A stretch of DNA of 64,000 bases from an uncultured virus (IMG/VR IMGVR_UViG_3300030001_000223). Its lineage: Duplodnaviria > Heunggongvirae > Uroviricota > Caudoviricetes. Positions within the stretch are counted from its first letter, which is position 1, and every line of letters begins with the position of its first letter. A program made the translations under genes and the position numbers. A model generated the notes under the pieces. That model ran no database searches. It was not told the DNA's origin and was given only the letters and a program-made list of their open reading frames with translations. Shown here piece after piece: positions 10,473 through 44,488 of the stretch. The stretch lies in the IMG/VR virus record IMGVR_UViG_3300030001_000223, positions 1-64,000 of that record, one strand, 5' to 3'.

Positions 10473-10594
10473 ATATAGGATAGATAAGAAAGTCATGAGT
10501 CTTATTAATAAGTGAGTGTTCCGAAACTCATTTCCTATATTCTAAATAATAAATCGGAATAAATTAAATGCAATCGGAGGTAATAAATATTATG
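10473..10594 (+). ncRNA. Structured 5'-leader RNA, copy 1 (loop palindrome TCATGA)
   Basis: P1 atatagga/tcctatat; P2 gataaga/tcttatt; P3 gtgagt/actcat; P3 loop ttccga is complementary to tcggaa (10554) and tcggag (10574, overlapping the SD). Confidence 0.7.
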
Positions 10595-11553
10595 GGGAAA
10601 GGTCAATTTTGGACAATAGAAGATGAAGAATTTTTAAAAGAAAATTACATATATTTATCGAAAGAAGAATTAATGAATAAATTTAATAATAGGACTTGGA
10701 AGGGAATAAGACATAAGGCTAATGATATGGGAGTTAAAAAACAAAACGACTATGAAAATATTTCAAACGATGAATTATATAAAATAGAAGGTGGAATAAA
10801 ATATAAATTATGTAAGTGTTGTAGAAGATATTTACCTTTGGAATTAAAATATTTTCCAAAAGACAATACGTGTACAGATGGGTTTAGAAATATTTGCAAG
10901 GAATGTAAAGGTGAGAACTTTGAGATTTCAAATGCGATTGATTGGACAGATAAAGATGTGGAGTTATTAAAAAAGTTTATTCCAATATGATAAATGAAGA
11001 TATTATTAAAGAATATTTTCCAAATAGAAAAATAAAACATCTAACAGATAAATCTTCGAAATTAGGATTAAAGAAAAATAAAGAGACTTTTAATAGATGT
11101 AGAATTATGAGTTGTGAGGGCAGAATTAAGATATCTAATATTAGAAAAATAGATGGAATTTTTAAAGGAAGAAATAATCCAATGTATGAATCTAAAAGAT
11201 ATGGTAATCTTAATCCTAATTGGCAAGGTGGGATTACTTCAGAAAAAAGCAGAATAATGAATACTGAGGAATATAAAAATTGGAGAAAACAAGTTTTTGA
11301 AAGAGATAATTATACTTGTCAATGTTGTGGTGAGAAAACACATAATAATGAAGCTCATCACATAGATAATTTTGCAGACTATGAAGATAAAAGATTTGAT
11401 GTTGAAAATGGAATGACTTTATGTAAGCAATGTCATAATCCAAATCAAGAAGGAAGTTTTCATAATACTTACGGAACGTTGCACAATAATAAAGAACAGT
11501 TAGAAGAATATATTGAAAGTAAAACAGATAAAGATTTAAAAGTCGCTAATTAA
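10592..11553 (+). CDS. HNH endonuclease with N-terminal Myb/HTH-like repeats and zinc finger, split into two frames at A-AAA-AAG (10969-10975)
   Basis: The C-terminal ORF has WRKQVFERDNYTCQCCG..EAHH..NGMTLCKQCH. The second WTxxD repeat is completed only by a -1 shift. Confidence 0.8.
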
Positions 11554-11604
11554 TTTAGTGGCTTTTTTATTATGTAAAAAATCAATCAAAGGAGAAATGA
11601 GAAA

Positions 11605-12495
11605 ATGGCAAATGCAGTAAAAAATAAATTAACATGTACTTGTTGTGGACAAGAATCTAGTGAGAGAAACTTTTATATAAGTAAATCATTTATATATAAA
11701 GCCAATTCTCATTTACCTATTTGTAAAACATGTTTAGGAGATTTATACGATAAGTATTATAGCAAGTATCAAGATTATAAATTAGCTTTATATTACATGT
11801 GTAGAGCAGTAAGTATATGCTTTAATCTAGGTAGTTATAATGCTGTTTTACAAGAAATTCAGAACGGGAAAACAACAAATGTATGGCAAATATATATGAC
11901 CAAGTTAAATAGTCTTGGTGGGAAAAATGGTGCTGGGGACGATTTCGATTCTAGTGATGATGTAAATGTTGTGGCACAGATAGAAGACTCAAATGAAGAA
12001 CGAGGACTTAGTAAAGATATACTCATTAAGTGGGGCAATGGATATAATGATGATGATTATATATGGCTAGAAAACACATATAATGAATGGGTTGGAAAAT
12101 ATAAGAGTGACACATTATCAGAACAAAAAACTTTTAAACTTCTTGCTATCAAAGAATTTCAAATAATGAAAGCAGTTGAGAAGAATAGTAATACTGATAA
12201 ATTAGAAGAAACTTATCTTAAATTAATGTCAGCAGGTAATGTTACTCCTAGAGATGCTAATGCTTCAATGGACGATGAAAATACAAAAGGACTTGGAGTT
12301 TGGACTAAAGACATTGAAAAGTATAGACCAGCAGAATATTTTGCAGACAAAAAATTATATAAAGACTATGATAGTTTAATTGATTACTTAAATAGGTTTG
12401 TATTCAGACCTATTAAAAATTTATTAATGAAAACTAAAGAATATGATGGAGAGTTCTCAATAGAAGATGACTTCAAAGTTGGTGGTGAAGATTAA
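11605..12495 (+). CDS. Putative terminase small subunit / terminase-associated zinc-finger protein
   Basis: CxxC...CxxC N-terminus; lies immediately upstream of the large terminase. Confidence 0.55.
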   Translation: MANAVKNKLTCTCCGQESSERNFYISKSFIYKANSHLPICKTCLGDLYDKYYSKYQDYKLALYYMCRAVSICFNLGSYNAVLQEIQNGKTTNVWQIYMTKLNSLGGKNGAGDDFDSSDDVNVVAQIEDSNEERGLSKDILIKWGNGYNDDDYIWLENTYNEWVGKYKSDTLSEQKTFKLLAIKEFQIMKAVEKNSNTDKLEETYLKLMSAGNVTPRDANASMDDENTKGLGVWTKDIEKYRPAEYFADKKLYKDYDSLIDYLNRFVFRPIKNLLMKTKEYDGEFSIEDDFKVGGED

Positions 12496-12497
12496 TA

Positions 12498-14288
12498 ATG
12501 GCTAACAACTTTAAAACAGCAAGACAAAATAATGCAAAAAAAACCAATATACATGAAAAACCTAGACAACAAGAAAAGAAACAAGAAAAAACTTTTGATT
12601 ATACAGAAAGGCTAATAGATTGGATTACATTCTATAGACGTAATTTACATAGAGCTGTTCAACATTATTTACAACTAGATTTACATTTATATCAAGCTAT
12701 AGCATTATACCTAATGAATATATGCCCATTAGTAGTAATAGTTGCATGTAGAGCTTCTGCAAAATCATATATTATAGCTATTTTTGCATGTATAAAAGCG
12801 ATACTTTATCCAAATTCATTAATTGTTATAGCATCAGCCACAAAAAAACAAGCATCTTTAATTGTAACTGAAAAAATAGTTAAAGAATTAATGCCAAAGT
12901 CTCCTAATTTAAGGAGGGAAATTAAACAAATTAAAACAAGTGGTAATGAAACTGAGGTAATGTTTGTTAATGGAAGTTCAATAGTTGTTGTTCCTGCAAC
13001 AGATAATGCGAGAGGATACAGGGCTACTTGCTTGGTATATGAAGAATTTCGGATGATTAAAAAAGATATTATAGATTTTGTATTATCACCATTTTTAATT
13101 ATACGTCAAGTACCATATTTGAATAATCCAGAATATGAACATTTAAAAGAAGAACCTACTGAAATATATATAAGTTCAGCATATTTTGCACAACATTGGA
13201 TGTCTAAAATGATAAAATTATCAGTAACTGATATGTATAAAAAATCAGAAGCTCTCTTTTTAGCATTTGATTATTCTATTACATTAAAACATAATATACG
13301 TACAAGAAAACAATTAATTAAAGAAAAGAAAAAATTAGGAACGGTTGCGTATGCAATGGAGTATGAAAACACAATGGTTGGTCAAGGAGAAGATGCTTTC
13401 TATTCGTTTGATTTAATGAATAATGCACAAAGTATGAAAAAAGCCTTTTATCCAAGAACTACTCAAGACGTATTAGAAAAGAAGAAAAATCCACATGACA
13501 TACCTAAACAAAATGGTGAAAAAAGATTAATTTCGGTTGATATAGCTATGGTTAATAATGATAAAAATGATAATACAGTTATAACCTGTATTAGAGCTTT
13601 GCCGAGCGGAGATATCTATGAAAGACAAATACCATATATTGAAGCTTTCAAAGGAGATAATACAACAGTACAAGCAACAAGAATCAAAGAAATATTTTAT
13701 GATTTTGATGCAGATATATTAGTATTAGATACTCAGAATGCAGGATTATCAATAGCAGATGAATTAGGTAAAATAACTTATTCAGAAGAAAGAGATAAAG
13801 AATACCCTCCATTTAAATGCTTTAATGATGAAGATGTTGCTAAAAGAATTAAAAATAAAGATGCTTTGCCTGTATTATTTAGTTATAAAGGTCAATCAAA
13901 AATTAATGAACAAATGCATTATGCTATGAAAGATGCATTAGATAGGAAGAAATTAAAACTATTAATTAATGCTGTTCAAGCGAGAGACTATTTAGATACT
14001 AAACCATTTTATAATAAAAAAGATATTGGACTTGAACAACAAGTATTATATGAACTTGTTTATGTACAAACAGATTTATTGATAAATGAAATGGTAGGTT
14101 TAAATCAAACTATAAGTAAAGGTTGTTTAGCACTTGAAGAACCTACAGCCTCAGCAACAAAAGATAGATATATTTCATTAGCAATGGGAAATTATTTAAT
14201 CAAACAATGGGAATTGGATTTACAAGAAAAAGATAGTGAAGAATCTTGGTCAGACGCCCCATCATTTGTAACCTCATACACGTTCTAA
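12498..14288 (+). CDS. terL: Terminase large subunit
   Basis: Variant Walker A (CRASAKS), ARGYRA, Walker B (VYEEFR), YISSA, nuclease motifs ISVDIA and KDRYISL. Confidence 0.9.
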   Translation: MANNFKTARQNNAKKTNIHEKPRQQEKKQEKTFDYTERLIDWITFYRRNLHRAVQHYLQLDLHLYQAIALYLMNICPLVVIVACRASAKSYIIAIFACIKAILYPNSLIVIASATKKQASLIVTEKIVKELMPKSPNLRREIKQIKTSGNETEVMFVNGSSIVVVPATDNARGYRATCLVYEEFRMIKKDIIDFVLSPFLIIRQVPYLNNPEYEHLKEEPTEIYISSAYFAQHWMSKMIKLSVTDMYKKSEALFLAFDYSITLKHNIRTRKQLIKEKKKLGTVAYAMEYENTMVGQGEDAFYSFDLMNNAQSMKKAFYPRTTQDVLEKKKNPHDIPKQNGEKRLISVDIAMVNNDKNDNTVITCIRALPSGDIYERQIPYIEAFKGDNTTVQATRIKEIFYDFDADILVLDTQNAGLSIADELGKITYSEERDKEYPPFKCFNDEDVAKRIKNKDALPVLFSYKGQSKINEQMHYAMKDALDRKKLKLLINAVQARDYLDTKPFYNKKDIGLEQQVLYELVYVQTDLLINEMVGLNQTISKGCLALEEPTASATKDRYISLAMGNYLIKQWELDLQEKDSEESWSDAPSFVTSYTF

Positions 14289-14358
14289 AACTAATTAATA
14301 AAACGACACTAACATCTAAACAAATTAAAATAAAAAATAAAAAGGAGGTGAAAGCGAT

Positions 14359-16062: not shown

Positions 16063-16098
16063 TAAATAAATATATTTGAAGGGAGGTGAGGAGAATAA

Positions 16099-17730: not shown

Positions 17731-17820
17731 GTTAAAACTAAGAGGTTTGAGATATAGCTTCTTTTTTATTGTAAAAAATAATATTAAAAAATTAAAATTA
17801 TGAAAGCGAGGAAATAAATT

Positions 17821-18282: not shown

Positions 18283-18337
18283 TAAATTAAAAACAATATT
18301 AACAAAAATAAATTAAAATTATGAAAGCGAGGAAATA

Positions 18338-19333: not shown

Positions 19334-19394
19334 TAAATTAAAATAAAAAAAGGGAGGAATTATTCTTCCCTTTAAATTTAAGGAGAGATATACA

Positions 19395-20009: not shown

Positions 20010-20061
20010 AGATAGGGTAAAAAATCTCTATCTTTTTTTATATTTGAAAGGAGAAGAGAGT

Positions 20062-21841: not shown

Positions 21842-21929
21842 AATTGTATGTTAATTATAAAGACATTAGGATTATTTCTAGTGTCTTTACATTAGTATAT
21901 AAATAAATTAATGTAAATTAAAAAAGATA

Positions 21930-21958
21930 TTGACAATCTTTGTTAAAGATGTTAATAT
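21930..21958 (+). promoter_or_regulatory. Sigma-A-type promoter
   Basis: TTGACA-N17-TAATAT. Confidence 0.7.
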
Positions 21959-21964
21959 AAATTT

Positions 21965-22086
21965 AGGAAGATTACTTAGTATAAGGTTCGAAACTTATAC
22001 TAAGGACAGGGTTTTTCATGTGCCTTTCTTTCTTTTATAAAATACACATGAAAATAAATTATAACATGAAGGAGATAATACATATG
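21965..22086 (+). ncRNA. Structured 5'-leader RNA, copy 2 (loop palindrome TTCGAA)
   Basis: P1 aggaaga/tctttct; P2 cttagtataag/cttatactaag; loop ttttcatgtg is complementary to cacatgaaaa and to catgaagg at the SD. Confidence 0.7.
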
Positions 22087-23715
22087 AATGAAAAGGAATA
22101 TTTAGAATTTATTAAACAGTGGAAAGAAGAGAATAAGGAATTAATTAAAAGTGGTAAGTGTAGAAAAACTTTTTTAGAATGTTTACCTAGGAAGTATGGA
22201 GTCGGTGGAAATAAAAATAAATTAGTTATTGATTGGATAAATTCAATTGGATATAATGTGTATTTTATATACGAAAATATTATAGGGTGGATTGAAATTA
22301 TTAGTTATAAAAAAGATAAAAGAATATTAAAAGTAAAATACAACAAATTTGAATCAGAGATAAATACTAATCAAATGTCAAACTGTAATATAGGAAGAAT
22401 TATAGGAAAAATCACATCAGAATTCAAAATAGAAATTGGACAAACTTTTAAAGATAACAAAAGAGATATAACTGTAACTGATAAAGAAATTAGAATTAGA
22501 TATAAAAAAGATGGTTCTTTGTGCAATGATAAATGGTACAAATACACTTGTAACGTTTGTAGTTGGAATGAAGGGTGGATGACAGAAGGAGATTTATTAA
22601 GAAAAGAAAAACGAGGATGTTCATGTTGTTCTGGGAAAACACTTATAGAAGGTATTAATGATGTAGCTACAATATCACCTTGTATAGTTAAATATTTTCA
22701 AGATGGTTATGATGAGGCTAAGAAGTATACAAAATGGGGAAGTGGAAACCCTGATAATCCAAAAGGTTATATCTATCCTATCTGTCCTGATTGTGGAAGA
22801 GTTAAAAAAAAGAAAACTAATATTGGTTATATTTACAAATCACATTCAATAGGGTGTTCTTGTAGTGATAATATTTCAAAAGGGGAAAAATATGTTTTTA
22901 GTTTATTAGAACAAATAGGTATAAAATTTATAACTCAATTATCAAAAAGAGAACAATCGTGGTGTAATAATTATAGATATGATTTTTATTTTCAGTTAGG
23001 TAATAAAGAAAATTATATAATAGAAGTAAATGGACAACAACATTACGAAGAAAATACTAATTTTGAAATGAATTTGGATGAACAGGTAGAGAATGATAAA
23101 AACAAAAAAGAACTAGCATTAAAAAATGACACAAAAGAAGAAAACTATATTATTATTGATTACAGAAAAGCTGATTTAAATTTGCTAAGAAAAAATATAT
23201 TGAATGATAAAATATTAAATGAATTATTTGATTTAAGTAAAATTAATTGGATAAAATGCTATGAATTTGCTTTGTCTAACTTAGTAAAAAAAGCTTGTGA
23301 ACTTAAAAAACAAAATCCTAAGATGACTACTACTGAAATAGGTAAATTAATGGGAGGATATTGTAGGCTTTCAATTCAAAAATGGTTAGAATCTGGTAAT
23401 GAATTGGGCTGGTGTCACTATAATAAAAATGAAGAAATAAATCAAAATTATAAAAACAGTGTAATAAGAAATAAGAAAAATTATTCAAAACCAGTAGAAA
23501 TATTTAAAGATGGAATTAGTCTAGGTTTATTCCCCTCAGCTAGTGAATTAGAAAGACAAAGCATAGAACTTTTTAAAGTAAAATTAATTAGAAGTAATAT
23601 TACTTTAGTCTGCCAAGAAAAACAAAAGCATCATAAAGGTTATGAATTTAATTATTTAACACAAGAAGAATATGATAGAAGGAAAAATGAAGAAAATTTA
23701 AAACAAGCAATATAA
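22084..23715 (+). CDS. Free-standing homing-endonuclease-like protein (zinc ribbons, Vsr/DUF559-like nuclease, NUMOD1-like HTH), paralog 1
   Basis: Multiple CxxC; YDFYF..IIEVNGQQHY..END..K motif; C-terminal GLFPSASEL...HKGYEF. Confidence 0.7.
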   Translation: MNEKEYLEFIKQWKEENKELIKSGKCRKTFLECLPRKYGVGGNKNKLVIDWINSIGYNVYFIYENIIGWIEIISYKKDKRILKVKYNKFESEINTNQMSNCNIGRIIGKITSEFKIEIGQTFKDNKRDITVTDKEIRIRYKKDGSLCNDKWYKYTCNVCSWNEGWMTEGDLLRKEKRGCSCCSGKTLIEGINDVATISPCIVKYFQDGYDEAKKYTKWGSGNPDNPKGYIYPICPDCGRVKKKKTNIGYIYKSHSIGCSCSDNISKGEKYVFSLLEQIGIKFITQLSKREQSWCNNYRYDFYFQLGNKENYIIEVNGQQHYEENTNFEMNLDEQVENDKNKKELALKNDTKEENYIIIDYRKADLNLLRKNILNDKILNELFDLSKINWIKCYEFALSNLVKKACELKKQNPKMTTTEIGKLMGGYCRLSIQKWLESGNELGWCHYNKNEEINQNYKNSVIRNKKNYSKPVEIFKDGISLGLFPSASELERQSIELFKVKLIRSNITLVCQEKQKHHKGYEFNYLTQEEYDRRKNEENLKQAI

Positions 23716-23784
23716 TAAGTGAGACATCTTTATATAAGGTGTCTTTTTGTTATGTAAAAATAAAATATAGAAAGAAGTGATGAT

Positions 23785-27347: not shown

Positions 27348-28106
27348 ATGGACAAGAGGATTATGATTTTTGAAAACAAAGAAGTTGAAGTATTTGAATA
27401 CGAAGGGAGAGTTTTATTTAATCCAAAAGATGTTGCTAAGTGTTTAGACATTACTGATGTTAATAGTAGTATGAGAAATTTTAATGAAAAGCAAGTAATA
27501 AAGCTAACTAATTCAGATATGCATGATGTGCAAATCCGAAAATTAAACAATGCTGGAGAGAAATTCTTAACTGAGAGTGGAGTGTATAAGCTAATATTTA
27601 AATCTAAAAAAGAAGAAGCTGAAAAATTTCAAGATTGGGTAACTGATGAGGTTTTACCTTCATTAAGAAAGAATGGTACATATTCAATTACTACACCAAA
27701 TGTAAATAACAATCTAGTAGATTTAGTACAAGCTACAATTACTAATATAATTCCATTAATAACTAACGAGATGGGTAAGTTAGTATTGCAATCACAAGAT
27801 AAAATAGATCAAAGTATTGAAATGCTACATAATCAATCAGTAATATACGATTCAGACAGAGAAAATTTAAAAGATTTAATTGGATTCCATTCAGTAAATA
27901 CAACTAGAATAGTAAAGACTATCAAGGAAATACTAAGTGAAAAATTAGGATATCATATAATGGCTAATAATCCTATATTTCAAAAGGTTAAGAAATCAGT
28001 ATTTAAAGAATTTAAAGTTATTAAATGGGAAGATGTTCCTGTAGAAAAATATTCAAGAGTATTTGCTTTTGTTGATGAGTATATTAGTGAAATGGAGTGT
28101 AAATAA
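27348..28106 (+). CDS. BRO-N domain antirepressor-like protein
   Basis: LFNPKDVAKCL...FLTESGVYKLIFKSKKEEAEKFQDWVTDEVLPSLRKNGTY; own promoter TTGACT-N17-TAATAT near 27255. Confidence 0.9.
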   Translation: MDKRIMIFENKEVEVFEYEGRVLFNPKDVAKCLDITDVNSSMRNFNEKQVIKLTNSDMHDVQIRKLNNAGEKFLTESGVYKLIFKSKKEEAEKFQDWVTDEVLPSLRKNGTYSITTPNVNNNLVDLVQATITNIIPLITNEMGKLVLQSQDKIDQSIEMLHNQSVIYDSDRENLKDLIGFHSVNTTRIVKTIKEILSEKLGYHIMANNPIFQKVKKSVFKEFKVIKWEDVPVEKYSRVFAFVDEYISEMECK

Positions 28107-30525: not shown

Positions 30526-30818
30526 AAAAACACCTCCTTTATAAAGTATTTTATTTTGGAAACAATAATATTTCTAATGTAAAATACTTTAAAGAAGATG
30601 GCAAAGAGTTATGAATGGATACAATATTCTATATTAATTTAGATATAATGTTTTATTTTAAATAGGTTTAGTTTCATTTTCATAACATTTCATTTTTTCC
30701 CTTTATCTATTTTAATATAGTATGTTTATTATACCATAAAATTGGAAAACTGTAAAATTAGATATAAAATTTTAGGATTGATTATAAATTACTTGAAAAA
30801 GTGTTATAATATAGATAT

Positions 30819-30943
30819 GGAAGGATAGATATATGAAGGGTTGCAAACTGGATTATATTGATAAGTGAATTTCGACCTCACTTCCTTTCTATTTTTATAA
30901 AATGGTCGAATAAATTAAATTATGAAAGGTCGAGATTGTAATG
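30819..30943 (+). ncRNA. Structured 5'-leader RNA, copy 3 (loop palindrome TTGCAA)
   Basis: P1 ggaagga/tcctttc; junction gataa; P3 gtga/tcac; loop ttcgacc is complementary to ggtcgaa and to ggtcgag just before the ATG. Confidence 0.7.
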
Positions 30944-32491
30944 GAGGATAATAAACAACTAAATCAAGAAGAATATATGGAGATTATTGAAAAATTTAAA
31001 AAAGAAAATAAAGAAGATTATGAAAAGGGTAAGATTAGAAAGGTATTTGATGAAAATCTTATATATAGTAAAAGTGGAAGAACTATTCATTGGAATGCTA
31101 GTATAGGTTATCAAGTATATTTTATACATGAAAATATAGAAGGATGGCTTAAAATAATTAATTATGATGTAAAAACAAGAAAATTAACAATAGATTATAA
31201 TAATGAATTGTTTTATATATTTTATGGAGATTTTTGCAAAGGTGGATTGTGTGCTATTTTGGGAATTGTTACAGTAGATTTCAAAATAGAAATAGGACAA
31301 ACATTTAAAGATGATAAAAGAGATTTAACTATTATTAATAGAGAATATAGAAAAGAAGAACATATTGATAAAAAAGGTAGAAAAAGTATAGTGAATTTAA
31401 AATACTACACATATAAGTGTAATAAATGTGGGCACAAAGGATTGTCATTAGAAGGGTCATTATTACGACAAAAGACAGGCTGTGCATGTTGTAATTCATC
31501 TAATAGAACTGTTGTATTGGGGATTAATACAATATATGATACTGATAAATGGATGATTCCATATATAGGTGAAGAATGTGCCAAAACTCATACTCATGGT
31601 AGCAATAAAAAAGTTGAAGTAACTTGTCCCGATTGTGGAAGAATTAAAAACAAACCTATGACAATAGGTAATATTTATAAACGACATTCAATAGGATGTC
31701 ATTATTGTTCTGATTCTGTAAGTTATCCAAATAAATTTGCATATGAACTATTAAATCAATTAAATAAAATATATAAATTTATTTATTTTCAACATGAATA
31801 TTCACCATCTTGGCTAGGTCAAAGAAGATTTGATAATTATTTTATATATAATGATAAAGAATACATAATAGAGATGGACGGAGGATTAGGTCATGGTAAA
31901 GGAAATTATAAAAATAACATGACATCTGAAGAATCTAAAGCTATTGATGATGAAAAAGATAGATTAGCTAAAGAACACAATATTGAAGTAATCAGAATAG
32001 ATTGTGAAATAAGTAGTTTGGATTATATTAAAAAACATATATTAGAAAGTAATTTAAATAAATTATTTGATTTAAGCAAAATAAATTGGCTAAAAGTCGA
32101 AGAATTTGCATTATCTAATTTAGTTAAAGAAGCTTGTAATTTATGGGATAGTGGTATTCATGATACTTTGAAAATTGCTGAGATAATGAAATTATCGAGA
32201 CCTACAATTACAACATATCTCAAAAAAGGTTCAAAGGAAGTATCTTGGTGTGAATATAACCCTAATGAAGAAAGTAAAAAAGGTACTATTCAATGCAAAC
32301 AAGTTAATAAAAAACCTTTAGAAGTATTTAAAGATAATATTTCTAAAGGAATATTTGAATCTGCTAGTGAATTAATAATAATAAGTGAAAAGTTATTCGG
32401 AGTTAAATTTGATTTTAGAAAAATATCATTAGTTTGTCTAGGAAAACAAAAGAAACATAAAGGATATACATTTAAATATATAATGAATTGA
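30941..32491 (+). CDS. Homing-endonuclease-like protein, paralog 2
   Basis: Same architecture as 22084: CxxC ribbons, RFDNYF..IIEMDGGLGH, C-terminal FESASEL..HKGYTFKY. Confidence 0.7.
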   Translation: MEDNKQLNQEEYMEIIEKFKKENKEDYEKGKIRKVFDENLIYSKSGRTIHWNASIGYQVYFIHENIEGWLKIINYDVKTRKLTIDYNNELFYIFYGDFCKGGLCAILGIVTVDFKIEIGQTFKDDKRDLTIINREYRKEEHIDKKGRKSIVNLKYYTYKCNKCGHKGLSLEGSLLRQKTGCACCNSSNRTVVLGINTIYDTDKWMIPYIGEECAKTHTHGSNKKVEVTCPDCGRIKNKPMTIGNIYKRHSIGCHYCSDSVSYPNKFAYELLNQLNKIYKFIYFQHEYSPSWLGQRRFDNYFIYNDKEYIIEMDGGLGHGKGNYKNNMTSEESKAIDDEKDRLAKEHNIEVIRIDCEISSLDYIKKHILESNLNKLFDLSKINWLKVEEFALSNLVKEACNLWDSGIHDTLKIAEIMKLSRPTITTYLKKGSKEVSWCEYNPNEESKKGTIQCKQVNKKPLEVFKDNISKGIFESASELIIISEKLFGVKFDFRKISLVCLGKQKKHKGYTFKYIMN

Positions 32492-32505
32492 AAAGGAGAG
32501 ATATT

Positions 32506-33042: not shown

Positions 33043-33106
33043 AGAAGTACTGTTTATAATTTGTACTTCTTTTATTTTTGTGTAAATGAAAGGAGAACGA
33101 TTATAA

Positions 33107-34664
33107 ATGGCTGATTCATATAAAAATTCAATAAAATTAGGCATTGCTCTTAAACCAACAAGCGAGGTACAAAATGAGTTAAATAGTGCTATACAACAAT
33201 TAGAGAAAAATTCTAGTATAGATTTAAAAATAGATACAAAACAAATTAATCAATCTTTAAAAGATTTTAGTGAAACTTTAAATAGTATTAGTAATCAAAT
33301 GAAAAACGGGTTTAATTTGGGGAGTGTTTTTAATGCTCAAGCAAGTAGCGTTGAAGGTGTTACTAATAAATTAAAAGAAGAACAACAAGCAATTGAACAA
33401 ACTGCAAATACTATGAAAATTTTATCTAGTACTAAAATAGGTAATTCTGATTCTAATGGAAATATAACAGAAACATTAAAAACAGTTGAACAATTACAAG
33501 AAGGTATTGGTAAAACAACTAGATTAACAACTGATTTAAAAACTGGATTAAATACTGCAACTAATACAGAAAATTTTCAGAAGTTAGAGAATATAGTTGA
33601 TAATTTACAAAACAAATTAAATAAATCAAGTAATAATAAATTTGTAAATGAATCTGTAATTACTGAATTGCAAAATAAATTAAATGGAATTAATACTAAC
33701 ACAGCCGAAAAAGAAATCAAAGAATTACAAACTACTATTAATAACTTAGGAAGTTCAGACAATCAAATAGTGAGACTACAATCAACAATTAGTAAAATGG
33801 AATCCAGTCTTACATTAATGAAAAGTAAATATGGAAGTTTAGTAGGTGATAATAGTTCAAAGTCTTCTTTAGATGCTTATGTATCTGAAATAGAAAAATT
33901 AAAAACATTAATGGCTAGTTTACAAAACGGTGGAACAATTAGTGGTCAAAAACTAGCTTCTGAATTAAATTTAGGAACAGAAGCTAGTAGGAATTTATCT
34001 AATTCAGTTAAAAATTCTAGTTCAGCACTTAAACTAGCTCAACAAGATGCAAATTCTTTTGGAGGAACATTATCTAAAGTTTTGAGCAACGCTGGAATAT
34101 ATATGGGTGCTTATCAAGGTATTCAAATGTTAACTAATGCCGTAAAAGATGGTGCAAAATATGTAGAGTATTTAAATGCATCTTTTACAGATATGAAAAT
34201 GACAATGGATATTTCAGAAAGTGGTTTTACTAAATTATCTTCAGAAATAGATGAAATGGGTAAAAAAATCGGTGCAGTTTCTACAGATATGCATGATATC
34301 GCTAGAGTTTATGCTAACGCTAATACGTCTGCCGATGAAATAATGCAGAAGGTTAAGTCTGCTTCTGAATTGTCAAATATATCTGGCATGAGTGGAGTAG
34401 ATACTACAAAATCCATGCAATCAGTAATAAATCAGTTTAAGCTAATGTCGCAAGAAGGTGCTACTGCTAGTTCAGTCACTCAACATGTTGGAGATGTATT
34501 AACTACTGTTTCTAGAAATATGCAATATGATTTTGCAGATGGAATAAAGCAAGTTAATGAAGCAATAAAGACTTCAGGTTCAGTGGCAGAGACTGCTGGA
34601 GTAAGTTTAGAGTCATATGCTTCTATGGCAGGTGCTTTTATACAACAAACAGGCAAAACTGGGT
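33107..34664 (+). CDS. Tape measure protein, exon 1
   Basis: Coiled-coil followed by TP901-like core repeats; ends at the predicted 5' splice site ...ACTGGGT. Confidence 0.85.
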
Positions 34665-34804
34665 TAAATTTAGGCTCAGTATAAACTTATTCTAATATAC
34701 GGCGAACACCCAGAGATGGACAACGCCTTGGAAGATTAATTTTAATACATAATAAAATAAATTAAAAGTGTTTACAATGATATAATAAAAAGGTATTATT
34801 ATAT

Positions 34805-34920
34805 TAGAAACTAGATAAGGAGTAATTAACCATATTGAAAAGGAGTATCCGAACTCCCTGTTTCTATTTTTATAAATTCGGAAATAAATTAAAATACATA
34901 TCGGAGGTATTATAGTAATG
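34805..34920 (+). ncRNA. Structured 5'-leader RNA, copy 4 (loop palindrome TAATTA), inside the intron
   Basis: P1 tagaaac/gtttcta; P3 ggagt/actcc; loop tccga is complementary to tcgga twice downstream, the second at the SD; promoter TTTACA-N17-TATTAT at 34771-34799. Confidence 0.7.
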
Positions 34921-35955
34921 AAAGTAGGAAACTTAGAAGTATATGGTATTATATATAAAATAATAAATAAGTTAAACAATAAGATATATATTGGACAAAC
35001 AGCTAGAGATTTTAATAAAAGATATTTTTATACAGGAGAAACAAAATTAGAAAGAGTTTATAATCTGCATAAAAATATAAAAGAAAAGAATAATGGATAT
35101 TATAATAGACACTTATTAGAGTCTATGGAAAAATACAGTTTAAATAATTTTGAATTGGTTGAAGTCTTTGATATAGCTTTTTCAAAAGAAGAACTAAATA
35201 TTAAAGAACAATGTTGGATTAACGTTTACGATAGTTATCATAATGGATATAATCAAAATTTAGGCGGAGATGGGAATTATGGAGTTGAACGGAAAAAAGG
35301 AAAAGATAATCCAAGTTCTAAAGCTGTGGTTCAATTAAATAAAAAAGGAAAATATATAAAAACGTGGGATTGTATGGCTGATGCTGAAAGAGAATTACAG
35401 ATTGCCATAGGATGTATAAGTGGAGTATGCATTGGTTTATGTGATAAAAATGGATACATAAGAAAATCAATAGGTGGTTTTATGTGGAAATTTTTAGACG
35501 ATTATAATAAAGAAGAATCAATTATATATGATAATAAGGTAGGAGAGTATAATAAAAAACCTATAGTTCAACTAGGTTTAAATGGGGATTTTATAAAAGA
35601 ATATAATTCCATATCTGACGCTTGCAAAGAAACAGAAGGTTCTATAACATCTAAAATATCTAATTGTTGTCAAAATAAAAGAAAATCTCATAATGGTTAT
35701 ATATGGATATATAAAAGAGATTATAATAAAGATAATAATTATAATTATAATGTAAAAAATAGTGGGAAAAATAAACCAGTAATTCAACTATCAAAAGATA
35801 ATATTTTTATTAAAGAATATAATAGTATGTCTGATGCAAGTAAAGAATTAAATTTAAATATATCAAAAATATCTAATTGTTGTAATAATAAAAGAAAAAC
35901 ACATGGAAATTATATATGGTTATTTAAAGAAAACTATCAAGCTATAATAAAATAA
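34918..35955 (+). CDS. Intron-encoded GIY-YIG homing endonuclease with three NUMOD1-like repeats
   Basis: GIIYKI..KIYIGQT..E..GYN; repeated KPIVQL...IKEYNSISDA...ISNCC..KRKSHNGYIW. Confidence 0.92.
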   Translation: MKVGNLEVYGIIYKIINKLNNKIYIGQTARDFNKRYFYTGETKLERVYNLHKNIKEKNNGYYNRHLLESMEKYSLNNFELVEVFDIAFSKEELNIKEQCWINVYDSYHNGYNQNLGGDGNYGVERKKGKDNPSSKAVVQLNKKGKYIKTWDCMADAERELQIAIGCISGVCIGLCDKNGYIRKSIGGFMWKFLDDYNKEESIIYDNKVGEYNKKPIVQLGLNGDFIKEYNSISDACKETEGSITSKISNCCQNKRKSHNGYIWIYKRDYNKDNNYNYNVKNSGKNKPVIQLSKDNIFIKEYNSMSDASKELNLNISKISNCCNNKRKTHGNYIWLFKENYQAIIK

Positions 35956-36217
35956 GAATCAAAAATAAGCTAAAGTTTAACACTCTTTAGTTTATTTTAT
36001 TATGTATTAAATTAATCACCAACAACGACTTAACGAATAAGGCTTGTATTTCTTATACAAGTATGTAAAAGTCTGAACTACACGCTATAATCTAAAAAAG
36101 AAACGTGTGAGAAAAGGTCAAGTGTAAAGACACTTTAAGAAGAACCTTTTCCGCTATATAATATTATTAATTATATAGTCAGTAGCCTTTAAATGAAGGG
36201 TGAAAGTAACAGAATCG

Positions 36218-39200
36218 CAGAATTTGCAGATTCATTTAAAATGGTATCAGCTAGAGTATTACAACAAAAAGAATTAGGTGCAGATTTAGGTATTTCAGAA
36301 GCAGATATGGCAGGAGCAGAAAAGGCATTAACTAAATATAATATATCTATCAGAGAGTCTAATGGGGGGTTAAGAAATTTAGATGATATATTAAAAGATA
36401 CATCGGTTGCTTTTTCAACCATGAGTGACAGTGATAAACAATATGTTGCAAATAAACTAGCAGGTGTCAGACAAACATCAAGTTTTATAGCCATGATGGA
36501 TTCTATGAAAGTTCAACAAGATCTATATGGAAAAGCATTGGCATCAACTGGTGCTTTAGAAGATGCAAATTCAATTAAAGCAGAAAGTTATCAAGGAAAA
36601 TTAAACACTCTTAAAACAACTTTTAATCAATTATCAGCAACAATGATAAATGGAAAAATGTTAACTGGTGGTTTAGATATAGCTAGTGGTTCATTAAATG
36701 GAATTAACACAGTTGCTAGTAAATTAGGTACATTCCCAACATTAATAATGGCTATAACTGGTGCATTAACAATATTTAATACTAAATTTAGAGAAAATGT
36801 TAATATAATTGGTGGAGTAATTCCTGGATATTCAAAACTTACAAATTCTTTAAATGGATTAAAAGAAAGTTTATCAGCACAGGCAATAAAACAAGCAGAA
36901 AATATAAGTACATTAAAAACATTTGAAATGGCATATCAAAGTGGTGGAGTTTCAGTTAAAGGAATGTCTACTCAATTAGCAGGAATGGAAGCTAAATTAG
37001 TAGCAACAAGATTAGCGATGGTTGCTACTACAATTGCCACAGTTGCTATGGAAACAGCAGTAAGTATGGGTTTATCATTAGCAGTATCTTTCGCAATAAC
37101 AAAAATAATGGATTTAGTAAATGCACAAGAAAATTTAAAAAAGTCTAATGAAGAAGTTATATCTAGTTATAAAAGTGAAAAAGAAAGTATAACCAACGCT
37201 ACTAATTTATTGAAGCAAAAAACAGATTTAGAAAATAAAATATCTCAAACCAATGAAGGAACTAAAGAAAACAAAGATTTAAAAGAAAAGTTATTAGATA
37301 TTGAACGTCAACTAGCAACAGCATTACCTAATAGTGTAACAGGATTTGATTCAGAAGGAAAAGCTATATCCTCAAATAATAAACAAATTGAAGAACAAAT
37401 TAGACTAAAAAAAGAATCTATGTTAGCAGATACTATGAAACAATTAGGTAAAAATAATTCTGCAATAGATTTAACGTTAGGATACAATAATGGAGATCTT
37501 AGTAATATTCAGAATACTTTAGAAACGTTAAAAAAAACTAAAGCAGAATTTGAAAGTCAACTTGAAAGTGCTACAACAAATTTTGAAAAGTGGCAAGCAA
37601 AAACAGGAATAGAAAGTTATTCAAAAATGATAACAGATGCAGAATCCAGAATAGCTTCAAATAGAAGTCTAGTATTGCAAGCAGTAGACGCTGGCAAATC
37701 GTATCAACAAATAGCTGATGAAATGGGAGTATCTGAAGATGTTGTAAAAAGTTATGGAAAGGCAGTTCAAGATAATACTGAAAAACAAAAACAAAATTCC
37801 AATCAAATTAAAGAAGCATCAAATCAAACAAAAATTTTAGCACAAGCAAATAAAGAATTAAGTAGTGGTTCTAATCTTAGTACAGATACTATTAGTAAAA
37901 TAGCTGAAATTTATCCTGAAGTTGGAGATAATGCAGAAAAAGCAACAGCAAAAGTTGATGAGTTTAATAATTCTGTAAAAGAAGCCCAAGCAAAGGAAGT
38001 TGAAGATGCAACAACCGCATATACAAAATCAGCAGAAGAAATAGCTAAAGCACAAGGGTTTTTAGATAAACTTAATAAATCTCAAGCTGTAACCCCAGCT
38101 TTAGTTGGTGAAGTTTTAAAAGTATATCCAGAATTAGCAACTAGTTTAGGTAGTGTTACTAGTCTTCAAGAAGGATTAAATAGTAAGATAAAAGAACAAC
38201 AAGTTAGTCAAAATGAAGCCTATTTAACTATGATGTCAGATGATGAAACATTTTATCAAAATAAAATTGCCAATAACGATGAATATAAGAATGCATATAA
38301 TAATCTATTAAATGCATTCGTAGCAGATGGGGAACAAGCATATACTATAGATTTTTCAAAATATAAAACTCTTAACGAACTAAAGCAAGGAACAATGAAT
38401 AGTTTCGGTACGTCTGTTAATAAATGGTTGTCTCAGTATGTAGATGTTAATGCAGATGGCTATGCAGTAGATTTGTCTAATTTTACAGATATAGCAAAAG
38501 CAAAAGTCGCAGTTCTTGCAAAGCTAAATGAAGAAATAAAAAAGATTAATGCAAATTTAGCTGGTACAGAAGCGATGAAATCAGTATTTGACAATACTAA
38601 TCAAAGATTAGAATGGCAAGGAGACACTGATTTACCACAGTCTGATGCTGATAAATTTTTACAAAAATCGAATGATGATGTTATTTCTAAATATAAAACA
38701 AAAATTGATCAATTGAACGGTGCGGTTAAAGAAGTTGATACTAAGTTTGATGGATTTGGTACAAGCATGAAAGGTTTCTCAGGCGGGGATTTAGGTGGGG
38801 CTTCTGATTTTAGTGGAACTGGAGAAGATTCTGGCAAAAAAGGTAAATCAGCAGAAACTTTAGCAAAAGAAGCAGAAGCTGAATTAGTTAAATCAGAAAA
38901 ACAAATGCTTACTGATATTACTGATGCATATAATCAAGCAAAAGATAAAATAGATGATGATATTAATGCAATAGATACATCACTTCAATTACTTGGAGAT
39001 GCAGATGATTCCAATTTTACTCAACGTGTAGATTTAGCTACTCAAAAAATAGCTAAACAAAAGGATGAAGTAACTAATGCAAGTGACCAATTACAAAAAT
39101 TAAAAGATACAACGGTTACTACAGCAGAAGCACAGAAAGAACTAGAATCAGCTACATTAAAAGCTTCTAAAGAATTACGTACTCAAACTCTTGAAGCGAG

Positions 39201-40941
39201 TAAACTTCAAAAAGAATTAGAAAAGACTACACAAGAAGAAATTAAAGCAACTTTAGAAAAACAAAAGGAAATTGATACTGAGACACTTGATGCACAACAA
39301 AAAGCACAAACTGATAGATTAGATGCTATTAAAACTAAACAAGAAACTTTACATCAAGAAAAGTTAGATGCTTTAGATTCTGAAACCAAAGCTTTAGAGG
39401 CGCAATCAACAGCCTTAGACGAACAAAATACTGCAACAGAAAGAGCTACTGAATTAGAAAAAGAGAAGACTGACCTTTTAGAAAAACAACAAGAATTAAC
39501 AAATTTAGAAAGTCAAAAAACTAATCAAGTATATCAAAAGCAAGCAGACGGCTCTTGGAACTTCATGTATGTTTCTGATAAAGAAGCTGTATCTTCCAAA
39601 CAAAAGGAAGTTGATACCGCTCAAGCTACTTTAGATGAAACAAATAGAAAAAATGCTTTAGATGATGCTAAAAAAGAAATAGAAGACCAAAAAAGTGTTA
39701 TTGAAGCAGAAAAAACATCTGAAGATACTGCATACGATAAGAAAAAATCATATTTAGATAAATATTCAGATGATTTAAAAGAATCACAAGAAAGAGATAA
39801 ACAACGTCTTGAAACTCATTATGCTGATATTGATACTTTATCAAAAGAGACATTAAAACAGTTAGAAACAGAATATAATAATAATTGGGATGCGATAGCT
39901 GAACATATAACTACAACTTTGACTGCAACTAAAAAGCAATTAGAAGATTTAACTACATTGAAAGCCAATTTTACAACCACTGAAGCAGATGAGGCTATTA
40001 ATAGTGGTGATGTATCGGGTTATATAAATAAAAATAAAAGTAAAATGACTGATGAAGCTAAAGTAGACGAAAACGAGATAAATACTAATCTAAAGAATAT
40101 TGACACAAGTGCAAAAGTTGCTAATACTTCTATTGATGACTTAACTCAAAGTTATAAAGATTTATTATCTGTAAAAAATAATAATGAAATAACAAATGAA
40201 GATATCACAACTAGAAAGTCACAAGTTAAAACAATAACTAATATAGATTCAGAAGGATTAAATACGTCCTTAAAGAATTTACAAGATACTGATAAGAAAC
40301 TTGAAATTGAGCAAGATACCCATTGTAAAACTGAATTAACAAGACAAAGTAAAGCACAAGATGATGAGTTGGCTAGTTTAAAGAAGTTCTCAGAATCATA
40401 TTTATTAGTTACTAACAAATTCTTAGAATTATTACAAGTAGTATATGACTTCAGATTTAATAATATTACTACAATTGTTAGTGGTGCTGTGAGTAATATA
40501 TTAGAAGCATTGATACAAACTGAAGCAGATTATGAAAAATTTGCTGAAATGTGGAATAAAATGCATAAAGAAGATGACCAAATACCTTCAAGTGTGGATA
40601 TTTCAAGTAATGTATCTGGGACTGCTAGTTATAAACAATCTACTACAGATTATCAAACTGGTAAATTGTCCTTATATTCTGCTGATGCTTTTGAAAAATA
40701 TGCAAGTCAAATTGGAAACGGAATAAGTGAAAGTTTATTAAGTAAGCTTAGTAACTATTCAGCTTCTGTTGGAGTATCAACTAGTACAAGTAATTCATCA
40801 ACGGTAAATAATAAGAGTAATTCATCTTCTAGTAGTACTACTAATGTTAATATTAGTCAACTTGATGTAAATACAAAAGATGCACAAACATTATTAAATC
40901 AATTATTAATAATAGTTCAAAACAAAACAAACTTGAGTTAG
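36218..40941 (+). CDS. Tape measure protein, exon 2 (spliced product 2093 aa)
   Basis: Continues the TMP core (GLRNLDDIL...LAGVRQ), then hydrophobic segments and a long coiled coil. Confidence 0.88.
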
Positions 40942-40975
40942 GAAAATCATCCTAACTCTTTTTATAAATAGTGAG

Positions 40976-41275
40976 GTGAATAGAGTAATGGATTTAAATT
41001 TAAATAAAGGTGCGGATATTCTTATAAATGCAATGCAAATCCATTCAAAAAATGAAGTAGATAGAAATGCAATAAAAAGTATGCATAGACAAGGATATAT
41101 AAAAACAGTTTTAGGAAATAATTTATATACTGTAGTTATAGATGAAGAAGATTATACAATAGAAGCAAGAGATGGATTAAATTTATCTGTAAATGATATA
41201 GTTATAATAATGTTGTATAACGGAGATATAAGTAGATCTTGGATAATAGATAAAAAACCAAAAAGATGGAAATAA
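40976..41275 (+). CDS. Small tail-tip region protein
   Basis: Beta-rich ORF directly after the TMP. Confidence 0.55.
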   Translation: MNRVMDLNLNKGADILINAMQIHSKNEVDRNAIKSMHRQGYIKTVLGNNLYTVVIDEEDYTIEARDGLNLSVNDIVIIMLYNGDISRSWIIDKKPKRWK

Positions 41276-41310
41276 TTATAAAAACAATATAAGAAAGGAG
41301 ATATTTTATT

Positions 41311-42531: not shown

Positions 42532-42691
42532 TAAAAACATAATACTAATAAATAAATTATAAAACAAACGTTGTAATTTTCTTTTATTAGTATTATTATA
42601 TAAGCATACCGAATAAATACAAATTGTGGTATAATATTCTAAGAAAACAATATGGTGTATTTATATAATGATACTAAGGAGAGTGGACAAT

Positions 42692-43495
42692 ATGAAAAAA
42701 TCTATAAGAAAATTAATAGTTATAGGCTTGATATCAAGTTCAATAAGTATTTTACCATTAGTTGGAGCAAGTGCAGAATGGAAACAAAATTTAGATAACA
42801 CATGGTCAAATACAGATGTTTCAGATGGTTGGTTTAAAGATGATTCAAATTGGTATTTCTTTAAGAATGGAGTTATGCAAACTGGTTGGTTAAAAGATTC
42901 TAATGGAAAATACTATTATCTATCGAGTAATGGAAATATGTTATCAAATACAACTACACCAGATGGATTTAAAGTAGATAATAATGGAGTCTGGATTCAA
43001 AATACAACAATAAATTCAAATAATACTACTAACATAAGTACAAATGTAGCAAATACCGCTAATAGCAATAATAGTTCTAATACTAATGTAACTAGCAATA
43101 CGGATAACAGTACAAAAACCACAGCTAATACGACATTAAATAATACTGGAGTAATTAATGCTAATACAACTAACAATGTTGATGTTACAGTTGATAATAC
43201 CAGTAAAGCTGAGAATGAATATTATAAAGAGTTAAAGAAGAGTGAGCAAAAAAGTGATGATAGTTTAAAAGCATATTATCAAAAACAATTAGATGAAGCG
43301 AGATCAGATTTAGCATCAGCACAACAAGAACTAAGTAATGTTAAAGGTCAATTAACTAACAAGACATTAACAAAACAGTCAGATGGTACATGGCAATATG
43401 TATATGTTGCAGATTCACAAAAAGTAGCACAATGTGAAAAGAAGGTAAAAAGTTGTCAAAGTAATGTTGATTATTATGAGAAACTGGTTAAATAA
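42692..43495 (+). CDS. Secreted cell-wall (choline-binding repeat) protein with Asn/Thr linker and TMP-like C-terminal domain
   Basis: Signal peptide MKKSIRKLIVIG...ASA/EWKQ; WYFFKNGVMQTGWLKDSNGKYYYLSSNGNM repeats; C-terminus similar to TMP 39454-39636. Confidence 0.85.
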   Translation: MKKSIRKLIVIGLISSSISILPLVGASAEWKQNLDNTWSNTDVSDGWFKDDSNWYFFKNGVMQTGWLKDSNGKYYYLSSNGNMLSNTTTPDGFKVDNNGVWIQNTTINSNNTTNISTNVANTANSNNSSNTNVTSNTDNSTKTTANTTLNNTGVINANTTNNVDVTVDNTSKAENEYYKELKKSEQKSDDSLKAYYQKQLDEARSDLASAQQELSNVKGQLTNKTLTKQSDGTWQYVYVADSQKVAQCEKKVKSCQSNVDYYEKLVK

Positions 43496-43574
43496 TTAAG
43501 ATTAGTATATATAGTTTAATTTAAGACTTAGATTTATTTCTAGGTCTTTTTATTATGTAAGATTAGAATAAAAT

Positions 43575-43805
43575 CTAATCTTCAAGTTTAATTCTATGAA
43601 TTTTAACTTTCTTTCGTTCAACTAAATCATTAATTTCACAATCAAAGAATTCGCATAAAATTTCTAAATGTTCTTTATTGATCATTTTAAAAGTATTATT
43701 TACATAATCACTAATAGTTCCTTGACGTATACCAGTTTGACGGCTTAATTCTCTTTGACCTATATTATGTTGTTCCATTATTTCTTTTAGTTTTAAATGT
43801 ATCAT
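43575..43805 (-). CDS. XRE/Cro-C1 HTH repressor
   Basis: QRELSRQTGIRQGTISDYVNN...LCEFFDCEINDLV. Confidence 0.9.
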   Translation of the reverse strand: MIHLKLKEIMEQHNIGQRELSRQTGIRQGTISDYVNNTFKMINKEHLEILCEFFDCEINDLVERKKVKIHRIKLED

Positions 43806-43844
43806 ATCATCACCTCAATTATATTATACCATAAAATTTAAAAA

Positions 43845-43933
43845 TGATACGAAAAAAGTTTCAAAAAAGTATTGACACGAAAATTGTATCAATGTATAGT
43901 ATAAATATACCAAGTGATACGAAATATGTATCA
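43845..43933. promoter_or_regulatory. Three palindromic operators TGATAC-N7-GTATCA across divergent promoters
   Basis: tgatacgaaaaaagtttca (43845), tgacacgaaaattgtatca (43873, overlaps TTGACA), tgatacgaaatatgtatca (43915). Confidence 0.8.
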
Positions 43934-43958
43934 AATAAAACTTGAGGAGAGTGTTATT

Positions 43959-44321
43959 ATGGAAACAATTATTAATAATGATTATGAAAGCAACCTACCA
44001 CAAAGAACCATAGAATATTTAGGGTTCTTAAATTTCTTACAAGAACAAAGAGATTGGGATAATGATTTAGTAATTATAAGTGGTGAAGAGTGGGATAAGT
44101 TTTATGATCCTACTACAGATGATGAATATGAAATGAAACTAGATATAGTTAATGTCAAAGACTTCTTTAATAAATTTGCAGAGATAACTAAAACAGACCA
44201 ATGGAAATTTGAGAATTATTTTGTTAGTAGTAAATACATAGATGAATGGACGTATAATACAATGAATTTAATAGTTAAAGTTGATGGATTGAATCAAAGA
44301 TTTATTATTGATTGCGTTTAA
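43959..44321 (+). CDS. Acidic hypothetical protein, paralog of 29788-30276
   Basis: Visible similarity to the paralog; RBS GAGGAG. Confidence 0.7.
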   Translation: METIINNDYESNLPQRTIEYLGFLNFLQEQRDWDNDLVIISGEEWDKFYDPTTDDEYEMKLDIVNVKDFFNKFAEITKTDQWKFENYFVSSKYIDEWTYNTMNLIVKVDGLNQRFIIDCV

Positions 44322-44359
44322 TTAATGGTTATATCGTAGAAATACTTTATAATATATAG

Positions 44360-44488
44360 GAGTAGAGAATAGATATTAGTAGATAGTCGACGATTTGTTA
44401 ATATTGATAAGTAACAACTTCTAAGTTACTTTTTCTACTTTATTTAATTATTAGGAGAAATATAATTAAAATGGAGGAATTAGTTATG
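44360..44488 (+). ncRNA. Structured 5'-leader RNA, copy 5 (loop palindrome GTCGAC)
   Basis: P1 agtagagaa/ttttctact; P2 gatattagtagat/atttgttaatatt; junction gataa; P3 gtaac/gttac; loop cttctaa pairs with ttaggag and tggagg (SD). Confidence 0.7.

Follow-up and report, generated by a model that had tools for sequence, protein, structure and literature searches.

Homing endonucleases need expression that is harmless to the phage that carries them, and to our knowledge the hairpin of the T4 type is the only control of these enzymes that has been worked out. The small RNAs C4 of phages P1 and P7 and CI of phage P4 control immunity in temperate phages and satellites: they are processed (RNase P), and their loops are complementary to sites in the transcript of their own operon; in P1 and P7 the C4 sites include a ribosome-binding site (RBS), and in P4 one element matches two sites. 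The dimerisation initiation site (DIS) of HIV-1 mediates kissing-loop dimerisation via a purine-flanked, self-complementary hexamer. For I-TevI, I-TevII, I-TevIII and segB of T-even phages and for mobE of Aeh1, PMC2988022 describes RNA structures that sequester the RBS and in which a late or middle promoter is embedded; natural RNA dimers are the subject of the overview PMC7357161. Here we describe a structured RNA leader that precedes endonuclease genes of an uncultured virus of the Caudoviricetes (IMG/VR record IMGVR_UViG_3300030001_000223, 120,845 bp, about 27% G+C). The stretch that was analysed, the window, is the opening 64 kb of this record; an earlier note on it had proposed that five endonuclease genes share a leader with a self-complementary loop and with a second loop that matches two sites downstream. 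These five leaders are called S1 to S5, in the order of their positions.

A recurrent three-way-junction RNA upstream of endonuclease genes

Inspection of the sequence found the stems, loops and downstream sites of all five leaders where the earlier note had placed them, including the palindromes and the matches between loop and target (Table 1). Each leader has three stems, P1, P2 and P3, and its junction starts 3-9 nt after a TATAAT-like hexamer, which agrees with the proposed start just past a sigma-A-like -10 box. The three-way junction is the minimum-energy fold of S1, S4 and S5. When a covariance model was built from S1 only (R1), its next-best matches on both strands of the window were S4, S5 and S3, with E-values of 6e-5, 1.2e-4 and 1.7e-3. 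S2 was missed by the models in window-wide and genome-wide searches and scored 17.4 bits, exactly at the expected spot, in a local search of 201 nt; it is a weak, divergent member that has the same plan with other junction strands. A candidate on the minus strand of the record (116033-116086, E 0.24 with the S1 model), which is followed by a small gene, was dropped: it consists of a promoter-like site and a single hairpin that resembles the 5' half of the leader only.

A protein-guided scan of other viral contigs identified 58 loci with related endonucleases, and the four-copy model matches directly upstream of the gene at many of these. With a 19-sequence model, the motif is present in at least 24 of 45 related viral records, at one to four copies apiece; these counts are lower bounds, because 108 candidates were scored per record. 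Removal of rows that are identical over the core plus 60 nt left 30 distinct instances.

The alignment of 19 sequences has standard pairs in 91.3% of 356 cells (44-56% in slid controls), and compensatory, two-sided changes are found at 20 of the 20 modelled base pairs. The covariation score is 0.785 in register, 0.11-0.19 with partners slid by 1-3 columns and 0.236 after shuffling (0 of 500 shuffles reach 0.785). Among the paired cells there are 36 with G.U and 6 with A.C, and the sense strand is therefore the functional one. The most conserved letters are those of the junction strands (UAG between P1 and P2, a UGAUAA-like strand between P2 and P3), with stems and loops being variable. The leader is thus a real RNA module of the sense strand with covarying stems, as had been suspected from the five copies.

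No family of Rfam 15, int-alpA and C4 included, matches the leaders at gathering score, and there are chance-level matches only at loose E-values; the earlier note had likewise not recognised it as a described family. Nor was a description of it found in the literature, with the 10,006 candidate-RNA alignments from IMG/VR (PMC10690425) lying outside that comparison. Hammerhead and other three-way-junction ribozymes were rejected, as their junction strands differ from those of the leader in order and sequence (judged by eye) and Rfam gave no matches. The leader is a real, recurrent and uncatalogued RNA. The sole gathering-level Rfam match in the window is a drum RNA (RF02958) at 4753-4863 on the plus strand, with 55.9 bits at a gathering score of 43.

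One loop, two complementary downstream sites

For each of the 24 distinct P3 loops, the 55 nt that follow contain two complementary stretches of 5 nt or more that do not overlap. The mean summed match length is 14.6 nt for the cognate region, 8.9 nt for the downstream regions of other instances and 8.8 nt for shuffled loops; a match of 7 nt or more at both sites is seen in 12 of 24 cognate cases, in comparison with 23 of 552 non-cognate ones and 3% of shuffles. Loop and targets hence change together in homologues too. Site 1 begins 5-17 nt past the junction; site 2 is positioned over or just 3' of the Shine-Dalgarno sequence (SD) and no more than about 20 nt separate its end from the start codon, which places it in the translation-initiation region. 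Interior differences between site 1 and site 2 are typically A/G facing a loop U and thus wobble-compatible (examples are ATTGGAGA/ATTGGAGG, GTCGAA/GTCGAG, GGTGGATAAAA/GGTAGATAA and GATTGGTAAA/GATTGATAAA), which is predicted by RNA pairing and not by DNA recognition. Predicted duplex energies are alike for both sites (-4 to -16 kcal/mol), neither of which is consistently the stronger; this calculated balance would be compatible with a switch but is no demonstration of one. In the leader L066:1501-1572 (record G003), a palindrome, GTTAAC, is located in the P3 loop, within a 12-nt match to both sites.

The P2 loop is self-complementary

A central 6-nt palindrome is retained in the P2 loop of 24 of the 30 instances (12 of 18 distinct loop contexts); the chance that a shuffled P2 loop has one is 0.105 (binomial P 1.7e-8). 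Of the six instances that have no such hexamer, five contain a palindrome of 4 nt (AGCT, GTAC or TATA) and the sixth lacks a palindrome altogether. Seven different palindromes occur, in few loop frames (AAG-N6-G, AG-N6-A, G-N6-A and TA-N6-GA), and self-complementarity is kept by paired substitutions, both at positions 2 and 5 (TAATTA to TCATGA) and at positions 3 and 4 (TCATGA to TCGCGA, TTCGAA to TTGCAA). An intramolecular partner of the palindrome was not found: the hexamer recurs nearby in only 3 of 24 cases, and these are scattered, so that the only consistent partner is either this loop in a second copy of the leader or a protein. Homodimerisation through the P2 palindrome would be plausible, with predicted self-duplex energies that range, by nearest-neighbour rules, from -7.9 kcal/mol for TCGCGA to -0.4 kcal/mol for TAATTA. 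The suggestion that every copy has a private palindrome that prevents cross-talk had to be given up as a rule, because palindromes are repeated within genomes (record G002 has two identical leaders, record G003 two TCATGA copies) and the P3 loop of S1 pairs with the sites of S4 in addition to its own.

The box between the sites is a phage-wide signal

The box that the earlier note had seen between the two sites is present, and this motif, AATAAATT, is a gene-proximal signal that belongs to the phage itself. Counted over the 55 nt ahead of all called genes, ATAAATTA/TAAATTAA is the top 8-mer (32 of 122 genes, 3.5 expected, 0-2 antisense); a looser pattern, searched over a wider span, occurs 45 times in sense and 3 times in antisense orientation, in the structural as well as in the replication module. 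Between about a quarter and a third of the genes of the record (G000) have the box ATAAATTA at a distance of 11-30 nt upstream. This enrichment marks it as the general gene-start signal of the phage, and its presence before genes of both modules means that it cannot be called 'late'. The box is probably a promoter element. At many minus-strand genes, which belong to the replication module, an ATTTTA-like element is located about 10 nt upstream of ATAAATTA; the two together would make up a candidate bipartite phage promoter. A link to the late promoters of YonO and SPbeta was considered and is not made, as the YonO promoter is undefined according to PMC5467207.

In 17 of the 30 leaders, the box is at +15 to +20 after the junction and abuts site 1. 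The exact box is also upstream of the leader in 4 of the 30 model-found instances, namely three leaders of the window and L100; S2 does not belong to these 30. Another lineage, represented by record G005 (loci L112-L121), has the gene-proximal motif AATAATATAAAA; the top upstream 8-mer in G005 is AATATAAA (54 of 206 upstream windows, 6.8 expected), and this 8-mer is found between both sites in the leaders L073 (record G005) and L103 (record G004). With two leaders of the G004/G005 lineage carrying the exact motif of their own lineage, the leader seems to carry the signal of the resident phage. The T4-like bypass by an internal promoter, which the earlier note had brought up, gains support both from the phage-wide occurrence of AATAAATT and from its replacement by the signal of the other lineage in 2 of 6 leaders. 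As a by-product, likely promoter or gene-start motifs were obtained for two uncultured phage lineages.

The leader itself appears to have a promoter of the host type: in 23 of the 30 instances, a distance of 3-12 nt separates the junction from the end of a -10 hexamer with at most one mismatch, and 15 of the 30 have a -35 hexamer (at most two mismatches) too. The promoter of S1 is the sole 12/12 consensus match within 9.5-29.4 kb of the window, a stretch of about 20 kb.

The leader is portable between endonuclease genes

Endonuclease-type genes of at least four kinds are found downstream of the motif. One loop/site set, TCTCCAAT with ATTGGAGA/G, is found ahead of both phrog_4538-type and GIY-YIG-type genes, and S3 and L070 have sites in common and different cargo; homologous cargo, in turn, also occurs with different loop/site sets. 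The junction and the 50 nt after it are 100% identical in the leaders L035 and L039, with 57-72% identity upstream and 66% in the open reading frame (ORF); in this same comparison, apparently unrelated AT-rich stretches are 54-69% identical. Judged by these alignments, the identity of the leader is decoupled from flanks and cargo, and its portability between unrelated endonuclease genes is as had been proposed.

The assignment of the cargo was correct in part. The proteins encoded at 22084, 30941 and 44486 are paralogues with 44-52% identity and match homing-endonuclease families of PHROG; neither Pfam nor PHROGs supplies the name 'Vsr-like' that they had been given. The HNH endonuclease that had been placed at 10592 is encoded by the next ORF, 10987-11553. 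The supposed intron-borne GIY-YIG gene at 34918 does encode a GIY-YIG/NUMOD protein, but no group I intron model matches at 34550-36300. Tape-measure/minor-tail-like ORFs, 33107-34684 and 36193-40941, both on the plus strand, flank this GIY-YIG cassette and may be a split gene or the result of an intron.

A model of leader function and its alternatives

Our preferred reading, which we hold with moderate confidence, is that of a portable leader acting in cis: the P3 loop occludes the translation-initiation region and the box provides a bypass in the form of a 5' end that lacks the leader. The order of the cassette is a sigma-A-like promoter, the leader, site 1, the phage box, site 2 on the SD and the endonuclease ORF; the leader would be a three-way-junction RNA of about 65-85 nt that starts at +1 or near it. 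On transcripts that bear the leader, the P3 loop of 8-14 nt would pair with site 2 (about -20 to -1 of the start codon) and block binding of the 30S subunit, keeping synthesis of the nuclease low. Site 1, an equally good cis target that abuts the box, would compete for the P3 loop, and because of this competition for the same loop we propose a device with two states and not a fixed lock. Between the sites, the box would create a second 5' end, either by initiation, as with T4 late promoters, or possibly by RNA cleavage; the resulting short mRNA, free of the junction and of site 1, would be freely translated, along the lines documented for I-TevI, segB and mobE (PMC2988022). The self-complementary P2 loop probably serves RNA-RNA pairing of two copies.

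Several observations weigh against this reading. An extra ATAAATTA is present just upstream of the leader promoter in four of the five cassettes, S2 included (10421, 21903, 30784 and 34753, plus strand), and at 53959 the SD follows the box after 2 nt, which is close for a -10 element; the box may act at the RNA level, as a cleavage site or as a translational enhancer. Just two of the six leaders of the G004/G005 lineage have the exact lineage motif, and a third has a 7/8 match. Nor is the leader obligatory, since the large endonucleases have a fourth paralogue (58653-60122, plus strand), preceded by a small ORF (58466-58640), that has box and SD and no junction. Single-sequence fold energies are ordinary, with z between -0.14 and +1.07 for four copies and -3.05 for S2, so that the evidence does not come from single-sequence thermodynamics; the alignment, for its part, was fitted to the model and the covariation is hence biased towards the structure, with the slid controls having the same fit. 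Site 1 is transcribed before site 2 and pairs equally well, its conservation is left unexplained by a simple lock on the RBS, and the default state could be 'on'. The logic of a bypass alone leaves both site 1 and the palindrome unexplained, which suggests a two-state device and possibly a leader that works as a dimer or is a small RNA in its own right.

The last of these ideas can be put in more definite form: the junction would be a separate small antisense RNA similar to C4 of P1/P7 or CI of P4, made from its own sigma-A promoter and ending at the U-run past P1, and a palindrome-joined dimer of it would clamp both sites of the mRNA with its two P3 loops, in trans or half in cis. A strong promoter is indeed found directly ahead of the junction, P1 is followed at once by 4-7 consecutive U in most instances, and the P3 hairpin of S4 was flagged as terminator-like; moreover, two direct-repeat targets per loop and a self-complementary second loop are what a symmetric dimer needs, and the palindrome has no second copy in cis apart from the scattered cases described above. 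We nevertheless consider such an RNA unlikely, as an AU-rich P1 that closes a multi-branch loop makes for poor intrinsic termination, the U-run is missing from S1 and L064, the Rfam model of C4 does not match and kissing through TAATTA would be very weak. We are similarly doubtful about the leader being a self-dimerising, bivalent antisense module, with the two P3 loops of a P2-joined dimer clamping the sites that flank the box. If true, this would account jointly for the two targets per loop and the self-complementarity of the other loop; repression would climb steeply with the concentration of leader RNA, and the module would be an RNA-only copy or dose sensor on selfish endonuclease cassettes.

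The conservation of the junction strands, in the midst of variable stems and loops, together with the balanced, switch-like energies of the loop/site duplexes would also agree with a riboswitch-like sensor, in which the junction nucleotides (UAG; UGAUAA) bind a small molecule or a protein of phage or host and thereby set the P3 loop on site 1 (on) or on site 2 (off). The chances of this are slim: the junction strands are short and AU-rich, S2 keeps the logic of loop and sites without having them conserved, Rfam riboswitches do not match, and no ligand candidate is apparent, with no metabolic hint from the cargo. In Bacillus, stem-loops at the 5' end and SD-like sequences are known as stabilisers, and in a Firmicute-type host a pseudoknot of the junction and of P3 loop and site 1 might protect the mRNA from 5'-to-3' decay, with pairing of site 2 being incidental to the SD-like sequence of both sites. 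The structure is at the predicted +1 and many sites are SD-like (GGAG, GGAA); sites that are not (GGTCGA, GATTGAGA, GGTTAAC, GATTGATAAA) still have a second copy in the initiation region that covaries with the loop, and the palindrome is left unexplained, which makes stabilisation as the function highly improbable. We give almost no credence to operators at the DNA level, where the repeats and their inverted copy would bind a domain of the endonuclease itself for autorepression in the style of I-TevI, and the palindrome would be a protein site. Autorepression of I-TevI is documented in PMC2988022, and the repeats do flank a promoter-like box; however, the inverted copy is always located in the loop of a hairpin, within an RNA fold that covaries and is strand-specific, repeat differences are wobble-compatible, and seven palindromes cannot suit one protein. 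One set of repeats is found with different protein families and homologous GIY-YIG proteins are found with different repeats: leaders and cargo proteins shuffle independently, and the operator reading was rejected for this reason.

Positions of features and genome setting

The leaders, their promoters and sites and the cargo genes are listed in Table 1. The large terminase of the phage is 37-43% identical to its counterparts in SPbeta-like phages of Bacillus and Lysinibacillus, and a megablast search with 4 kb gave no match to named phages. Genes for packaging, head, tail, tape measure and lysis are on the plus-strand half; the replication genes are on the minus strand, outside the window. Just past the lysis genes and on the opposite strand, a transposase-like gene (phrog_157, E 1.8e-70; 56975-57826, minus strand) is probably an insertion sequence within the phage. 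Two genes similar to anti-repressors (Ant) are located inside or beside the structural module (5523-6386 and 27348-28106, both plus strand).

Table 1. Leader cassettes S1 to S5 and further box positions (coordinates of the window)
Cassette	Feature	Position	Strand	Sequence or description
S1	Promoter, sigma-A/sigma-70-type	10440-10468	+	TTGACA-17-TATAAT; -10 ends 4 nt before junction
S1	Three-way junction P1/P2/P3	10473-10541	+	
S1	P2 loop	10490-10499	+	AAG-TCATGA-G
S1	P3 loop	10518-10525	+	GTTCCGAA
S1	Site 1	10554-10559	+	TCGGAA
S1	Box	10559-10566	+	ATAAATTA
S1	Site 2	10574-10579	+	TCGGAG, overlaps SD GGAGG; ATG 10592
S1	Cargo ORF 1	10592-10990	+	132 aa, DNA-binding/zinc-finger-like
S1	Cargo ORF 2	10987-11553	+	HNH endonuclease, overlaps ORF 1; terminator-like hairpin 11538-11566
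S2	Promoter-like site	21930-21958	+	TTGACA-17-TAATAT, TG ahead of second hexamer
S2	Junction, divergent	21964-22035	+	
S2	P2 palindrome	21987-21992	+	TTCGAA
S2	P3 loop	22011-22022	+	GTTTTTCATGTG
S2	Site 1	22045-22054	+	CACATGAAAA
S2	Box	22054-22061	+	ATAAATTA
S2	Site 2	22065-22072	+	CATGAAGG; ATG 22084
S2	Cargo	22084-23715	+	543 aa, homing-endonuclease-like, phrog_4538/9084; terminator-like hairpin 23721-23745
S3	Extended -10 element	30802-30810	+	TGtTATAAT
S3	Junction	30818-30891	+	
S3	P2 palindrome	30841-30846	+	TTGCAA
S3	P3 loop	30869-30877	+	ATTTCGACC
S3	Site 1	30904-30910	+	GGTCGAA
S3	Box	30910-30917	+	ATAAATTA
S3	Site 2	30928-30934	+	GGTCGAG; ATG 30941
S3	Cargo	30941-32491	+	516 aa, homing-endonuclease-like paralogue
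S4	Promoter-like site	34771-34799	+	TTTACA-17-TATTAT
S4	Junction	34804-34868	+	
S4	P2 palindrome	34823-34828	+	TAATTA
S4	P3 loop	34846-34853	+	TATCCGAA
S4	Site 1	34877-34882	+	TTCGGA
S4	Box	34884-34891	+	ATAAATTA
S4	Site 2	34901-34907	+	TCGGAGG; ATG 34918
S4	Cargo	34918-35955	+	GIY-YIG/NUMOD homing endonuclease
S5	-10 box	44348-44353	+	TATAAT
S5	Junction	44362-44439	+	
S5	P2 palindrome	44386-44391	+	GTCGAC
S5	P3 loop	44416-44424	+	AACTTCTAA
S5	Site 1	44451-44457	+	TTAGGAG
S5	Box, variant			AAATATAATTAAAA
S5	Site 2	44472-44477	+	TGGAGG; ATG 44486
S5	Cargo	44486-46114	+	542 aa, homing-endonuclease-like paralogue
	Box, further examples	3856, 5498, 9980, 18308, 27318, 53959		

Comparison with known systems

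The int-alpA RNA (RF02996) has a model of similar length (71 vs 68 positions). With this model (gathering score 35.8 bits), there was no match on the five leaders or the whole record at E-values up to 10, none in the 24 motif-bearing records at E-values up to 1 and no copy in E. coli K-12; the leader is set apart from int-alpA at the level of the covariance-model score. Like C4 and CI, the leader is a small folded RNA at the head of the transcription unit that it would control, and its loops match repeated sites. In contrast to these immunity regulators, it heads endonuclease genes and its processing into a separate small RNA would be hypothetical, and the C4 model (RF01695) did not match the leaders in any of the E-value searches. 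With the HIV-1 DIS, the P2 hairpin shares a loop of 8-10 nt that has a self-complementary hexamer with purine flanks (24 of 30 instances). Unlike the DIS, it belongs to the mRNA leader of a bacterial virus and not to a retroviral genome, some of its palindromes are AU-only with weak predicted pairing, and the dimer is putative. Should the palindrome mean dimerisation, the leader would be a small and tractable addition to the few natural RNA homodimers that are known, and a compact, programmable part for translational control.

The T-even system, as set out in PMC2988022, shares with the cassettes described here a homing endonuclease as cargo and a stretch of upstream RNA that matches the ribosome-binding region by complementarity (a predicted pairing in our case, for 24 of 24 distinct loops). 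If the promoter-like box of the phage is indeed a promoter, the likeness would extend to its placement, as a short transcript from it would lack the inhibitory part. The differences are in the form. Whereas the T-even structure is a local hairpin that includes the RBS, here the arm loop of a three-way junction, located 40-60 nt upstream, would form a long-range interaction of the pseudoknot type; the loop has two equivalent targets, self-complementarity is found in a second loop, a promoter of the host type belongs to the leader itself, and the module family is common to several endonuclease families and to many uncultured phages. We thus propose that a conserved, portable RNA domain controls several families of endonucleases in many uncultured phages. 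It is a known control principle in a new form, a conserved three-way junction with two targets; without described counterpart in this setting are the two interchangeable targets of one loop, which flank the gene-start signal of the phage, and the self-complementarity of a second loop, which is held by paired substitutions.

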